A stretch of DNA of 31,317 nt from a virus. Under the pieces are notes generated by a model that had not been told where the DNA came from, did not search any database, and saw only the letters and a program-made list of their open reading frames with translations. A program made the position numbers and the translations under genes. The stretch spans positions 1-31,317 of the IMG/VR virus record IMGVR_UViG_3300045988_067427; one strand, given 5' to 3'. Shown here in pieces: positions 10,196-14,343 of this stretch (its first letter is position 1; each line of letters opens with the position of its first letter).

Positions 10196-10698
10196 TTTGT
10201 CAACTCTTTGGCAAGCTTGTGAGCGGTGCGCACATCTGTGGTTGATTTGTACTCAATTGATTCTTCACCAATAGTGAAAGTCGTAGCTGTGCGGAACTTG
10301 TTCAACTTCCAGCTGGCCGTCCGTGCACACTCAGTAACCCACGAGCGGTACCCAATGCTCAGAACCAGGAATTCAGCCCAAGAGTACCCAGTCTCGGCGC
10401 CTGCCCACAACTGCTTACCCCAGTCCGAGAACAAGTCATCTAAGTTGAATGCAATCACGGCCAAGTTGAACCCCTTAGCCCGTGGTACGTTAGGCTTAGC
10501 CCCTGCTCGGATTTCAGAATTGATACCCACGTAATCGTGGATATCCCCGTCAACCCACGAGCGGGTCATGACACCGTGTGAGTTCTGTGGGTCCACAACC
10601 AGCTCGCTGGGGGCGTACCCCAGCCCTCGGGCGAAGACTTCAGGGGTAACCCCTGGGGTGGCTGCAATGACAAGTCGGTCAGACGGATTCACTAACAT
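10183..10698 (-). CDS. 171-aa hypothetical protein
   Basis: Good RBS (AGGAGAG 4 nt before ATG 10698). Overlaps the helicase stop by 20 nt and the polymerase start by 13 nt. No motif recognised. Confidence 0.75.
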   Translation of the reverse strand: MLVNPSDRLVIAATPGVTPEVFARGLGYAPSELVVDPQNSHGVMTRSWVDGDIHDYVGINSEIRAGAKPNVPRAKGFNLAVIAFNLDDLFSDWGKQLWAGAETGYSWAEFLVLSIGYRSWVTECARTASWKLNKFRTATTFTIGEESIEYKSTTDVRTAHKLAKELTKCYF

Positions 10699-12043
10699 AG
10701 GTCTCTCCTAACAGGAAGTCTCTGGTATTCAGCATGATCTCTTTACGGAACTCTGTGGCCTCAGCCAGGCTAGACCACAGGGAGTCCTCCACAGTGTCCT
10801 GAGTCACCAGGACGATGACCTTCGGATCATCTGCTAGAGCTACTCTATCAGACATCTGGCGGTAGGTCAAAGCTGAGGTAGGCACCCCGTACCACACCAG
10901 CACTTCGGCCTCGCGCATATCCACAGCAGTGGCAGCGACTTGAGGATTTACCACCAGAGTGCCAGCCTCAGAGGCCTTCCAGGCGTCCAGCACGGCAGTC
11001 TTATCCTTTACCTTACCGTCCAGCCTATACGTGGGGTCTAAGTGACCCTCCAGCACTGTGAGGGAGTCAAGTAGCTCGCTAGCTACCACTATACGACCAC
11101 TGTAGCTGTCGCGTATGCGCAGCAGGGCCTCGAGCTTGTGGGTGCTGTGCATGAGCTTCCCCTCACCTGTGGATAGCCCCTCAGCTAGCCTGCGGCACTT
11201 GGCAAACAGGGCCAGCACCGAGTCAGCTCCAGTTTCGCCTTGAGCCTCGAGGACGTCGAGCTCATCCCGCACCATAGACTGGTAGGTAGCATGACGGGAC
11301 TCGACCATGTATACGGGCACAACCTCCTCCTGCACAGCCTTAGTGCCCAGAGCGTCCTCACGGCTAATACTTATGGAGTGCGCCTTAATAAGTGCCTGGT
11401 ATTCCTCAGTATTCCTTGGACCTATATAGCGGGGGAATCCCCCGAAATTAGACCATTCACCGAAATACTCCCGGAATGACTTAGCTGAGGGGAAATCAGC
11501 TCGAATAGAGGGGTCAGAGAATACCAACTGTGGGTAAATCTCACCCACCATATTACGCTTACCCACAGGGGTGGCTGTCAAGCATACCCTGTATCTAGCA
11601 GATTTAGCCATACCCACAATACGCCTAGACCTCTTGCTGGCGGGCGTCTTGATTAGGTGAGATTCGTCCAGGACAATAGCTGATGCGTGGTATTCAGCCC
11701 CTTTGAAAAGTCCCTTAGGGTACCCTCGGGAGAATTTGTCATAGTTGATGAGCACTATCTTAGGCAGTGCGGAGGCCTCATATGCCCCATCGTAGACAAT
11801 GTCCGCCTCAGGACCCCAGTAATGCTGCTGGAGTTCCCTGACCCACACGTCAATAGCGATCTTAGGGCAGACCACAACGATGTACCTAACATCACGGTTG
11901 TGCATCAGCCACGACAACCAGTCGATGGTTGTCTTAGTCTTACCCGTACGTGTGTCCATAAGGAGCATACCGTGCTCTTTTTTAGCCAGCCACTTAACCG
12001 CGGCCAGCTGATAGTCTCGAGGTTTAGTGACTGGCTCAAACAT
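10679..12043 (-). CDS. SNF2/DExH-family helicase
   Basis: Motif I MDTRTGKTKT, motif II VLDESHLIK, motif III LTATP and a C-terminal helicase lobe with QMSDRV. Confidence 0.9.
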   Translation of the reverse strand: MFEPVTKPRDYQLAAVKWLAKKEHGMLLMDTRTGKTKTTIDWLSWLMHNRDVRYIVVVCPKIAIDVWVRELQQHYWGPEADIVYDGAYEASALPKIVLINYDKFSRGYPKGLFKGAEYHASAIVLDESHLIKTPASKRSRRIVGMAKSARYRVCLTATPVGKRNMVGEIYPQLVFSDPSIRADFPSAKSFREYFGEWSNFGGFPRYIGPRNTEEYQALIKAHSISISREDALGTKAVQEEVVPVYMVESRHATYQSMVRDELDVLEAQGETGADSVLALFAKCRRLAEGLSTGEGKLMHSTHKLEALLRIRDSYSGRIVVASELLDSLTVLEGHLDPTYRLDGKVKDKTAVLDAWKASEAGTLVVNPQVAATAVDMREAEVLVWYGVPTSALTYRQMSDRVALADDPKVIVLVTQDTVEDSLWSSLAEATEFRKEIMLNTRDFLLGETYVSESV

Positions 12044-12303
12044 TAGTTAATTGCTCCTTCAATCATCTTCTTGTACTGGAGTGTGGTCCCAGTACCCATC
12101 CTAGCAACCTCCACACCCTCGCGCAAGGCGATAACTGTAGGCACGGACATGATGTCAAATTTACGCCCTAGGTCAGGGTTGACCTCAACATCAACGTAAT
12201 CCCAACCAAGGTAAGGGAACTTTTGCATAGCCCTTTCAAAATTAGCCTTGGCTTGCGGGCACTGTGCACACCATGGGGCTCCAACAAAGAACAACTTCAA
12301 CAT
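12043..12303 (-). CDS. Thioredoxin-fold redox protein
   Basis: 86 aa with a WCAQCP CxxC motif and the SVPT cis-Pro element. Its ATG overlaps the stop of the upstream gene (TAATG), and its own stop overlaps the ATG of the downstream helicase gene. Confidence 0.8.
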   Translation of the reverse strand: MLKLFFVGAPWCAQCPQAKANFERAMQKFPYLGWDYVDVEVNPDLGRKFDIMSVPTVIALREGVEVARMGTGTTLQYKKMIEGAIN

Positions 12304-13130
12304 TAAACTACCACCACTTTCGCTGAGTAGATAGGCGCCTTATAGTCGACCGCCTTGAACCCTTTACCTTTAAATTCTAGCACACCTTGTTTAGCCGGTA
12401 TGAACTCAATCTCCTTCTCTACCCTAGCGGGCATCAGCATCCTATGCCAAACATCGAGATTCTGGCAATACACATGTGCATTAGCAGTAGTGAACCTCAG
12501 CTGACCCGGCACGACCTCATGCCCGTGATAATTCAGGGTATTAGTCATCAGGTGGATAAGCATCCATCCCTCAAGCGTGTCGTAAGGTAGACCGCACACT
12601 ACATCAGTAGACCGGGCGAATATGTCGAGGTTGACCCTGCCCCCTACCACATTGAACACCCACACCACCGGGCAAGGTGGAATACGCATAGACCCTACCT
12701 CATACCCCTGCCAGGCAGTCCACACAGCGCGTTTGGTTGTGGGGTTGGCTACAAGCCTGTCCACAACGTCCTGTACAGCGTCATATAGCCCACCAGGGCC
12801 CCCGTAGCGCCACTGGACTCCATACATAGGCCCCAGCGTGTCTGTGGCCCACGGGGACCACATGCGCTCCACATCTGGGGTGATTCTAGCACACCTGTCC
12901 TGCTGTGTGGCCCCTGACCCGCTCAGCATCCAGTGCAGCTCACGCTGAGCCATGTCCACAGACACTCTACGAGTCTGGGATAGGGGTGCATGGGTGTAGA
13001 CCACACTCCATGACCCGTAGCACCAGTAGGGGTGCTCCTGCCCTTTTGTTACTAGCTCAGCAACCTGTCTAGACAGGTTGTATACGTTATGATCATACTC
13101 ACACAGCACGTCGGTAAGCCTCCGATACAC
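12303..13130 (-). CDS. Thymidylate-synthase-family enzyme with dCMP-type active site (candidate dCMP methylase/hydroxymethylase)
   Basis: ThyA motifs ELHWMLSG, GPMYGVQWR, PPCP (catalytic Cys), ARSTDVVCGLPYD and ANAHVY. The spacing is identical to E. coli QRSCDVFLGLPFN, which puts Asp where ThyA has Asn177. Confidence 0.85.
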   Translation of the reverse strand: MYRRLTDVLCEYDHNVYNLSRQVAELVTKGQEHPYWCYGSWSVVYTHAPLSQTRRVSVDMAQRELHWMLSGSGATQQDRCARITPDVERMWSPWATDTLGPMYGVQWRYGGPGGLYDAVQDVVDRLVANPTTKRAVWTAWQGYEVGSMRIPPCPVVWVFNVVGGRVNLDIFARSTDVVCGLPYDTLEGWMLIHLMTNTLNYHGHEVVPGQLRFTTANAHVYCQNLDVWHRMLMPARVEKEIEFIPAKQGVLEFKGKGFKAVDYKAPIYSAKVVVV

Positions 13131-13857
13131 ACTTGACGATTATGTAACCCGGTTCCTTAACCCATGAGCTACCGTAATTAGCCCAGTGCGTAAAGTCTTT
13201 AACTGCCTTATTGAAATTCTTAGCTAGAGTGTAATTAGTCACCCCATAAGATACATCTGGGCTTACATTATAGCCCATATTAAGGTACTTATGAAAGGCC
13301 TCAAGAATAAACATACAGGCCTTTTTAGTAAGGTCCCTAAACCTTATATCACCCCAGTTAAGGGTCTCCATGCATTGGGGATACCAGTCACCGAAATTGA
13401 GGTCATTAGACCACCGAGCGCCGTCATCTTTTAGAGACCTAGTTACGACCACACCTGCATTCTTCAGCACGGTTATACCCTGTTTGTGGTCTCGCCAATT
13501 AGGCTTTTTCAAGGCTGGGTCAAGCCACGGCCTGTCGTATTCCAGGTACCCTCTAAACCATGACAGCAACAGTGCCCTAGCACAGTTCGCACACGGCTCA
13601 TATGTCATGGCTATGTGGCCCTCACGCAGCTCGTAAGGAAGCCTCATAAGCTCTAGTGAGGCCCACACCTCCGCATGAATGTACTCAAGACACTGGCCAT
13701 TAGGTGCGATATCGTGCAGTTTAGGGCCGAGCTCCACGTTATGAGTGGCTATGGCTCTCCCTGTACGTGTGTTTTCGAAATAACACCCAACCTTGACATC
13801 CGGGTGGGACGACTGACTGGCTACCTCGTATGCTTTTTCAATGTTACTCAGTATCAT
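13099..13857 (-). CDS. dCMP/cytidine deaminase-family zinc enzyme with ~110-aa C-terminal extension
   Basis: Motifs VKVGCYF...YIHAEVWA...YEPCANCARALL (H-A-E and P-C-x-x-C). Residues ~140-252 have no recognisable motif. Confidence 0.85.
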   Translation of the reverse strand: MILSNIEKAYEVASQSSHPDVKVGCYFENTRTGRAIATHNVELGPKLHDIAPNGQCLEYIHAEVWASLELMRLPYELREGHIAMTYEPCANCARALLLSWFRGYLEYDRPWLDPALKKPNWRDHKQGITVLKNAGVVVTRSLKDDGARWSNDLNFGDWYPQCMETLNWGDIRFRDLTKKACMFILEAFHKYLNMGYNVSPDVSYGVTNYTLAKNFNKAVKDFTHWANYGSSWVKEPGYIIVKCVSEAYRRAV

Positions 13858-14137
13858 AGGTCCTCACAATAACACGATCGAACTGTGGAAAAGTCTTCAG
13901 AATAGCTTCACAAGTGATGCAAACGTGGTTAATTATGTACGCAATGCCCGGGCGTGACCCCCCAACCTCATTTAGCAGCCTCATTACTGGGTGGATGTAG
14001 GCCCCTCCGGGCTTAGGGTAATACTTACCCGGCACCCACCAGATACCGTCTGGGCTTGAGAAAACCACAGATGACATACATCCTCGCTCGGGCTTGATGC
14101 TCTGAACCATGCGGGGAATATCCCCGAATTCATACAT
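13844..14137 (-). CDS. 97-aa deaminase-fold-like protein lacking the catalytic Glu (HPV ... CITC)
   Basis: The sequence SSVVFSSPDGIWWVPG...AYIHPVMRLL...IAYIINHVCITCEAILKT...RVIV follows the order of the CDA-fold beta-alpha elements. His and Cys-x-x-Cys are retained, but Val sits where the proton-shuttle Glu should be. Overlaps the start of the catalytic deaminase gene by 14 nt. Confidence 0.5.
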   Translation of the reverse strand: MYEFGDIPRMVQSIKPERGCMSSVVFSSPDGIWWVPGKYYPKPGGAYIHPVMRLLNEVGGSRPGIAYIINHVCITCEAILKTFPQFDRVIVRTYDTE

Positions 14138-14343
14138 CAGAATTCACTCCAATCACCGAACTCGTCCTTGTGGCCGTACTTAGCCTCGTACTTGAACCCG
14201 AGCCACACACCAGCAATAGCCATCAGGATGAGGGCCACATACCACAGACCGTAGAAGATCATCCAGGTGATCAGCACCCCAAGCCCGAGAGCAGCAGCGA
14301 CAGCAGCAATAATACCGGCCATGTAGGCGACGAACTTAAGCAT
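14137..14343 (-). CDS. 68-aa two-helix membrane protein
   Basis: Track ORF 14137..14409 trimmed to ATG 14343 (GAAAGG RBS). The longer version would run through the promoter boxes. Product MLKFVAYMAGIIAAVAAALGLGVLITWMIFYGLWYVALILMAIAGVWLGF... Confidence 0.7.
   Translation of the reverse strand: MLKFVAYMAGIIAAVAAALGLGVLITWMIFYGLWYVALILMAIAGVWLGFKYEAKYGHKDEFGDWSEF

Follow-up and report, generated by a model that had tools for sequence, protein, structure and literature searches.

A short predicted deaminase-fold protein without the catalytic glutamate is encoded beside a divergent dCMP-deaminase-like enzyme in a lineage of ~31-kb phages

The IMG/VR virus record IMGVR_UViG_3300045988_067427 (positions 1 to 31,317, a stretch of 31,317 nucleotides referred to here as the window) carries on its minus strand an open reading frame (ORF) for a 97-residue protein, directly upstream of one for a 252-residue deaminase-like protein. 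We propose that the 97-residue product, hereafter the small protein, belongs to the cytidine deaminase (CDA)/deoxycytidine monophosphate (dCMP) deaminase fold as a minimal form that is catalytically dead and lacks strand 5. On the strength of a structural model we consider this identification of a dead, truncated, CDA-like zinc protein probable. The whole explanation, in which the dead protein would also assemble with the catalytic deaminase encoded next to it, is a tentative one that we hold at a little below even.

A preliminary description of this DNA, made from its letters alone, had drawn attention to the two genes; its ORF coordinates, the 14-nucleotide (nt) overlap between them and all of its quoted motifs are present as described. 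The small protein contains SSVVFSSPDGIWWVPG, AYIHPVMRLL, IAYIINHVCITCEAILKT and RVIV. That it keeps the His and CxxC and lacks the Glu of a zinc deaminase, as first noticed in the window, is true in every relative. His49 (codon 13991-13993), Cys73 (13919-13921) and Cys76 (13910-13912) are the retained residues, and the site of the proton-shuttling Glu, position 51 (13985-13987), is Val in the window and Val or Ile in every sequence, giving HP[VI] and never HxE. The CITC motif is a feature of the window protein that does not extend to the family: most relatives have CPTC, and the residue after the first Cys can be I, V, P, T, H, Y, L or G. The position before the first Cys holds V, I, L or T, and Pro in no relative.

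A search of 5.8 billion proteins placed the small-protein family in 60 clusters at 60-95% identity, the longest contigs of which are mostly about 30-32 kb. Our alignment took in 27 relatives at 60-95% identity, and 22 of its 97 columns are invariant. Glu17, Cys20, His49, Pro50, Cys73 and Cys76 are the same in all relatives. The small protein has three Cys and two His, of which only His71 varies; the chance that Cys20, His49, Cys73 and Cys76 would all fall among the invariant columns is 0.002 (hypergeometric), a figure to be read in the knowledge that Cys is well conserved in general. The best-conserved segment is IKPERGC (Ile14 to Cys20), right before predicted strand 1, in which Ile14, Pro16, Glu17 and Cys20 are invariant and Lys15 and Arg18 nearly so.

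We compared 5 loci around distant homologues, 23 from IMG/VR and 20 further metagenome loci, some of which are one contig present in two collections; together they represent about 45 related phage contigs of ~31 kb. The survey of relatives that the preliminary description had called for found the small ORF full length and stop-free in all of them and, on every contig that extends far enough, directly 5' of the deaminase gene (28 loci, then 20 more). Pairwise ratios of nonsynonymous to synonymous substitution (dN/dS, Nei-Gojobori) are 0.10 for the small ORF, 0.09 for the deaminase core and 0.24 for the deaminase C-terminal extension. The small ORF is a real gene under purifying selection. Its family is also an orphan confined to one phage lineage. 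There was no near-identical DNA or related record among 50,697 GenBank phages, and no match in a prophage and host search of 185,579 genomes. The lone recurring tblastn match of the small protein in phages, to the gp99 region of Mycobacterium phage Alice (E 0.7), was rejected as spurious because it runs antisense to a gene for 434 aa.

Structure prediction provides moderate evidence for a deaminase fold. An AlphaFold2 (AF2) model of the small protein, made from an alignment of 27 sequences with an effective sequence number (Neff) of 1.7, reached a predicted local distance difference test score (pLDDT) of 73 and a predicted template modelling (TM) score of 0.65. Its elements are helix 6-12, strands 23-28 and 31-36, helix 50-58, strand 65-69, helix 74-82 and strand 88-92, an order that matches Hel-1, Str-1, Str-2, Hel-2, Str-3, Hel-3 and Str-4 of the deaminase fold in the nomenclature of PMC3239186. 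These boundaries put His49 at the first turn of Hel-2 and Cys73 and Cys76 at the start of Hel-3. The predicted ligands would thus lie at the N-termini of consecutive helices, in the zinc-ligand positions of real deaminases.

Structural neighbors of the model point the same way. In the PDB, the best Foldseek match is T4 dCMP deaminase (1vq2; probability 0.94, E 0.056, query TM 0.57), followed by APOBEC3H, the Arabidopsis, Klebsiella and Vibrio CDAs, Streptococcus mutans dCMP deaminase and blasticidin-S deaminase. In BFVD, 7 of the 8 top matches are annotated as phage dCMP or CMP/dCMP-type deaminases and the eighth is unnamed (probability up to 0.95, E 0.03-0.3). Because the model has a deaminase core and deaminases head its structural matches, a CDA-like fold for the small protein appears probable, and zinc binding with it likely. 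One structural zinc would probably be held by His49, Cys73 and Cys76. Since the conserved residues that could bind zinc number exactly four, a closed Cys3His site is the natural reading, in which Cys20 might, by analogy, be the fourth ligand and substitute for the catalytic water. Four strands are modelled and five residues follow the last of them, so the fold appears truncated and the edge of its sheet exposed; such an edge would argue for assembly of the small protein with itself or with a partner. A thioredoxin or glutaredoxin reading of the CPTC motif was rejected, since the motif comes late in the protein, in its final third, the residue after its first Cys varies, and there is no thioredoxin fold among the top 50 structural neighbors.

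Profile comparison adds a local signal. We profiled 13 diverse phage dCMP deaminases, including those of T4, 121Q, SP-10, S-TIM61, a crAss-like phage and several actinophages; the N-terminal domain of the neighboring enzyme, used as a positive control, matched this profile at 97.6% in hhalign. The small-protein family gave one local match, SRPG-IAYIINHVCITCEAILK against SIEGATMYVTLSPCPDCAKAIA, which spans strand 3 and the PCxxC helix and is correctly in register (P 0.0026, probability 11.6%). Its score was reached by 1 of 300 column-shuffled controls, and the match points weakly toward kinship with deaminases.

Several results weigh against this identification. The small protein has no match in Pfam, PHROGs, NCBIfam or PADLOC. 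When the 27 relatives were run against Pfam, the lone deaminase-family match was MafB19-deam, at E 0.3 in one sequence, and each of five unrelated families hit just one of the relatives. Run as a profile against PDB sequences, the small family returned nothing relevant, and its hidden Markov model (HMM) found, among 1.84 billion representatives, its own family and repetitive-protein noise. In hhalign the small family left the catalytic domain of the neighboring deaminase family unmatched, and gave just a chance-level match of 15 columns in the C-terminal extension. No residue of the AF2 model exceeds a pLDDT of 90, strand 5 and the Pro of PCxxC are missing, and CorA N-terminal domains appear among the Foldseek matches. 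The CDA fold that the preliminary description had read from the order of elements is favored by AF2 topology and Foldseek neighbors and not by the statistics: no match reaches E 0.001 in either the PDB or BFVD, the hhalign probability is 12%, and the HMM searches are negative. The deaminase-fold assignment of the small protein is not statistically secure.

The identity of the 252-residue protein is firmer. It carries the motifs EYIHAEVWA (His61, Glu63) and EPCANC (Cys89, Cys92), matches PHROG 174, and is covered from residue 6 to 98 by PF00383 (E 6.7e-9, 36 bits against a cutoff of 25); His61, Ala62, Glu63, Pro88, Cys89 and Cys92 are invariant in 26 relatives. The best Foldseek matches of its model are the human, S. 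mutans, T4 and S-TIM5 dCMP deaminases (2w4l, 2hvw, 1vq2 and 4p9c), at E 8e-6 to 3e-5 and probability 1.00, in alignments of about 140-155 columns (178 for 1vq2), from a model whose mean pLDDT is just 64. By family and fold, residues 1-140 are a genuine dCMP-deaminase domain, which may act on dCMP, like T4 Cd, or on a 5-substituted dCMP. The domain is very divergent. It scores 16.7 bits against a cutoff of 219 for the NCBIfam ComEB equivalog TIGR02571, and falls short of an equivalog-level match to the ComEB or the anti-phage deoxycytidine triphosphate (dCTP) deaminase models. With residues 1-140 as query, tblastn found no match at E 1e-3 in the 50,697 phage genomes, and a homologue search yielded no new diversity. 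Trp65 in HAEVWA replaces the Asn of dCMP and TadA-type deaminases (HAExNA) and THN replaces GYNG (window 13663-13665 and 13738-13743), which suggests a remodelled substrate pocket. The unexplained C-terminal extension that had been noticed in the window is real: its 112 residues (141-252) are unmatched, with no Pfam, PHROG or PDB relative, and are predicted with low-to-moderate confidence to form three long helices that bear invariant DLNFGDWYPQ and YGVTN motifs.

The two genes belong to an operon of six minus-strand genes arranged head to tail, with neighbors overlapping or abutting throughout (Table 1). Upstream of the small ORF, the gene for a 68-aa membrane protein, whose sole family match is a weak one to a holin-family Pfam entry (E 0.001), overlaps it by its stop codon in a TGATG. 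Beyond the SNF2 helicase at the other end lie a family-A DNA polymerase and then the remaining replication module. At the junction between the small ORF and the deaminase gene, where the overlap is 14 nt in the window and 11 nt in relatives, a GAGGA sits just ahead of the deaminase ATG, a geometry typical of translational coupling. A scan for promoters and terminators gave counts not above those in shuffled sequences, with no terminator between the two genes, and from the arrangement of the sequence they probably share one transcript. Fusion of the two ORFs by programmed frameshifting was judged unlikely: the deaminase frame is +1, a TGA stands in it three codons before the ATG, no slippery site was seen by reading, and a conserved Shine-Dalgarno sequence and ATG are present. 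Among 17 ORFs scanned with Pfam (3.3-15.3 kb), none matched ribonucleotide reductase.

Table 1. Genes and features around the small ORF (window coordinates)
Feature	Position	Strand	Remarks
68-aa membrane protein, two predicted transmembrane helices (MLKF...GDWSEF)	14137..14343	-	conserved; adjoins the small ORF upstream
97-aa small ORF, predicted truncated CDA-like zinc protein without catalytic Glu	13844..14137	-	
Junction of small ORF and deaminase gene	13844..13865	-	GAGGA 13861-13865; deaminase ATG 13855-13857; small-ORF stop 13844-13846
Whole 252-aa deaminase ORF	13099-13857	-	
Catalytic dCMP-deaminase-like domain, residues 1-140 of the 252-aa protein	13438..13857	-	PF00383, PHROG 174, Foldseek, hhalign
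Deaminase C-terminal extension, residues 141-252 and stop	13099..13437	-	conserved; three predicted helices
ThyA-family enzyme, 275 aa as listed	12303..13130	-	Asp184 codon 12579-12581; catalytic Cys153 codon 12672-12674
86-aa thioredoxin-fold protein (WCAQCP)	12043..12303	-	between ThyA homologue and SNF2 helicase
SNF2 helicase	10679-12043	-	

The gene that follows the deaminase bears on what the module might do. In the ThyA homologue, a gap-free alignment of RSTDVVCGLPYD with RSCDVFLGLPFN, spanning RS-DV--G-P--, places an Asp at the specificity position: Asp184 stands where Escherichia coli has Asn177 (GLPYD versus GLPFN), as Asp179 does in T4 dCMP hydroxymethylase. Both folate-site Trp residues and the catalytic Cys are retained. 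The Asn that specifies deoxyuridine monophosphate (dUMP) and defines ThyA in the strict sense is absent, and the protein falls short of the cutoff of every NCBIfam ThyA equivalog model; it probably methylates or hydroxymethylates dCMP. Its ORF as listed starts at GTG 13130, and in relatives the start codon corresponds to GTG 13107-13109 (M-L/W-C-E-Y-D), so the product is probably 268 aa, from a gene overlapping the deaminase stop by 11 nt. Thymidylate synthase (TS) domains and PF00383 deaminase domains co-occur on phage contigs that carry modified cytosine (PMC8670742). Given this co-occurrence and the Asp-type ThyA homologue, the module looks like a unit for cytosine-nucleotide modification or for the supply of thymidine monophosphate (dTMP), which fits in outline the modified-dCMP pathway suggested in the preliminary description.

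These data lead us to the following proposal. The small gene would give a dead deaminase-fold protein with Val or Ile in place of the proton-shuttling Glu, and the same transcript would next yield the very divergent dCMP-deaminase-like enzyme with its helical C-terminal extension, then the Asp-type, dCMP-directed ThyA homologue and the thioredoxin. The dead protein may join the catalytic deaminase as a non-catalytic subunit and there influence how the enzyme oligomerizes, the form of its substrate pocket or its regulation; an effect on substrate choice could be expected by analogy. Such a heteromer is possible, at distinctly less than even, and rests on adjacency and on the precedents of ADAT3 and CDADC1. 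Universal adjacency, co-transcription, the coupling geometry of the junction, a dead fold beside an active one, the truncation of that fold and the two precedents all count in its favor.

Dead paralogues beside active deaminases are found in eukaryotes in several forms, the N-terminal domains of double-domain APOBEC3s among them. The precedent cited in the preliminary description, ADAT3/Tad3, is borne out: in ScADAT3, Val218 replaces the Glu and the zinc site is retained, with zinc held by H216, C254 and C257, and by C322 in place of the catalytic water (PMC7713142). As in the small protein, the Hel-2 Glu has become hydrophobic while the His and two Cys are kept, and the fourth Cys ligand of ADAT3 parallels the invariant Cys20. 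ADAT3 is the non-catalytic partner of its active paralogue ADAT2 in the tRNA A34 deaminase, a pairing that for the phage proteins we only infer. The two also differ considerably. ADAT3 has a full five-stranded domain, a large N-terminal tRNA-binding lobe and recognizable TadA homology, whereas the phage protein has 97 residues, no strand 5, HP[VI] rather than H[SCA][VC], no Pro of PCxxC and no detectable deaminase sequence homology, and its presumed partner is of the dCMP type rather than the TadA type.

CDADC1, a vertebrate (d)CTP deaminase, offers a parallel from the dCMP-deaminase side. Its inactive N-terminal domain, with HAG and PCxxC, is built into the trimer and hexamer as an integral part of their structure (PMC12088426). 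In both systems the inactive unit comes first and the active one second, both are related to dCMP deaminases, and the inactive unit has lost its Glu and retains the CxxC zinc motif. CDADC1, however, is one chain of 514 aa with a linker of more than 100 residues, whereas the phage units are two polypeptides with their own start codons and the dead one is much smaller. The two-domain CDAs of the E. coli and plant types likewise combine an active with a degenerate CDA-fold unit (PMC3239186), and the Arabidopsis, Klebsiella and Vibrio CDAs are among the Foldseek matches of the small protein; in the two-domain enzymes the dead domain is C-terminal and fused and has lost its zinc ligands, whereas the phage one is upstream and separate and keeps them. 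With the dCMP deaminases themselves (T4 Cd, S-TIM5, human DCTD and the S. mutans ComEB type), the 252-residue protein shares HAE, PCxxC and PF00383; it differs in its Trp for Asn, its THN for GYNG and its 112-residue helical extension, and no dead paralogue gene adjoins these known enzymes. T4 Cd.1, the ORF upstream of T4 cd, was considered as a counterpart and rejected, since it has no Cys/His motif and is unrelated.

Comparison of the related genomes shows how the genes of the module have been reassorted. There are two types of small-gene paralogue, A (97 aa, MYEF...) and B (103-105 aa, MIGVSSDM...), which have Glu17, Cys20, His49, Pro50, Cys73 and Cys76 in common. Most genomes have A only and one lineage has B only; in two lineages B and A stand in tandem before the deaminase, an arrangement consistent with obligate assembly. 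Stretches with the B type, in tandem with A or in its place, are L003:3683-4294, L045:2298-2909 and L001:4001-4318 of the locus set. Across loci L001-L028, identities to the window (12303-14137) vary independently for the small gene, the deaminase and ThyA; in L020, for instance, they are 96%, 79% and 88%, respectively. Such independence implies frequent recombination inside the module.

Recombination also bears on the proposed partnership, toward which three observations are adverse or neutral. Distance matrices correlate at 0.14-0.18 for the small protein and the deaminase, at 0.38 for the small protein and ThyA, and at 0.38-0.41 for other pairs of segments, so there is no signal of co-evolution between the small protein and the deaminase. 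Their alleles are shuffled freely by recombination. And because all genes of the operon overlap or abut their neighbors, the 14-nt overlap is a trait of the whole operon and not specific to this pair.

How, then, might the small protein act if it is not a deaminase subunit? It could be an unrelated small zinc or CxxC protein, for example a host-takeover factor of an early operon, whose likeness to deaminases is a coincidence or an artefact of prediction and whose function lies apart from the neighboring enzyme. The uniformly negative sequence-family searches, Foldseek E values of at least 0.03, the hhalign probability of 11.6% and the shallow AF2 alignment are all compatible with this, and there are several other folds in which a hydrophobic strand leads into a helix that starts with CxxC. 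We nevertheless think it rather unlikely: dCMP and cytidine deaminases top two independent structure libraries from which thioredoxin-like folds are absent in the top 50, the His and CxxC fall exactly at two helix N-termini, their spacing from His to Cys is 24 residues against 28 in T4 Cd and the neighboring deaminase (counted from the sequences), the hhalign match is in the right register, and the ORF always adjoins a deaminase gene. That strict adjacency in every genome is also more simply explained by shared function than by a deaminase-fold decoy directed at a host protein, which might form mixed oligomers with a host dCMP or dCTP deaminase or with a deaminase-based anti-phage defense, or sequester its activator. 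An early-looking operon with small orphan genes, alleles shuffled independently of the phage deaminase, and a copy number and paralogue type that vary (A, B, B+A), as is often the case in counter-defense genes, would suit a decoy; the dN/dS of 0.10 speaks against arms-race diversification, and there is no PADLOC match or other link to a defense system. On balance we find a decoy improbable.

The better correlation of the small protein with ThyA than with the deaminase raises a further alternative, that it serves some other part of the module, such as the Asp-type ThyA or a multi-enzyme deoxynucleoside monophosphate (dNMP) complex, as a scaffold or regulator with no catalytic role. The genes are co-transcribed and tightly packed, and the nucleotide enzymes of T4 form a complex. 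The correlation could, however, stem from population structure and recombination breakpoints, and there is no structural rationale for a CDA-fold protein on a ThyA dimer; we rate this role as improbable too, and marginally more so than a decoy. The small protein might, last, be an active enzyme with a remodelled active site and a non-canonical proton shuttle, for which the invariant Glu17 of IKPERGC, the most conserved segment, would be one candidate. All characterized zinc deaminases of the fold, however, use the Glu of [HC]xE (PMC3239186), and position 51 is hydrophobic in every relative. Strand 5 and the substrate-binding C-terminal elements are missing, and if Cys20 ligates zinc the water site is gone. 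Activity of this kind is very improbable.

Returning to the dead subunit, a specific version of the proposal is that it gates the divergent deaminase or redirects it toward a 5-modified cytosine nucleotide made by the Asp-type ThyA homologue, the candidate conversions being 5-methyl-dCMP to dTMP or 5-hydroxymethyl-dCMP to 5-hydroxymethyl-dUMP. This is a long shot; if true, it would represent a viral two-gene analogue of ADAT2/ADAT3 in the modification of DNA precursors.

As to the phages themselves, their DNA polymerase has its closest cultured relatives in Microbacterium phages (38% identity), where the equivalent module instead has ThyX, thymidylate kinase and MazG. The sole related contig with a habitat label (L057, contig OOPC01000006) is labelled as human oral metagenome. 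Together, the oral label and the affinity of the polymerase hint at an oral actinobacterial host.

In eukaryotes, pseudo-deaminase partners are a well-known theme. A full-text literature search found no description of a separate, ~100-residue, Glu-less, zinc-holding version beside a phage nucleotide deaminase, and we have found no report of a phage case or of a separate one of this size. If the pairing is real, viruses would have arrived at the pseudo-subunit solution independently, no smaller zinc-holding form of the fold than the small protein would be known, and its presence could explain the regulation or a new substrate of a very divergent deaminase. Because an Asp-type ThyA homologue and a thioredoxin are also present, the module in this ~31-kb phage lineage may mark an uncharacterized pyrimidine-modification pathway.

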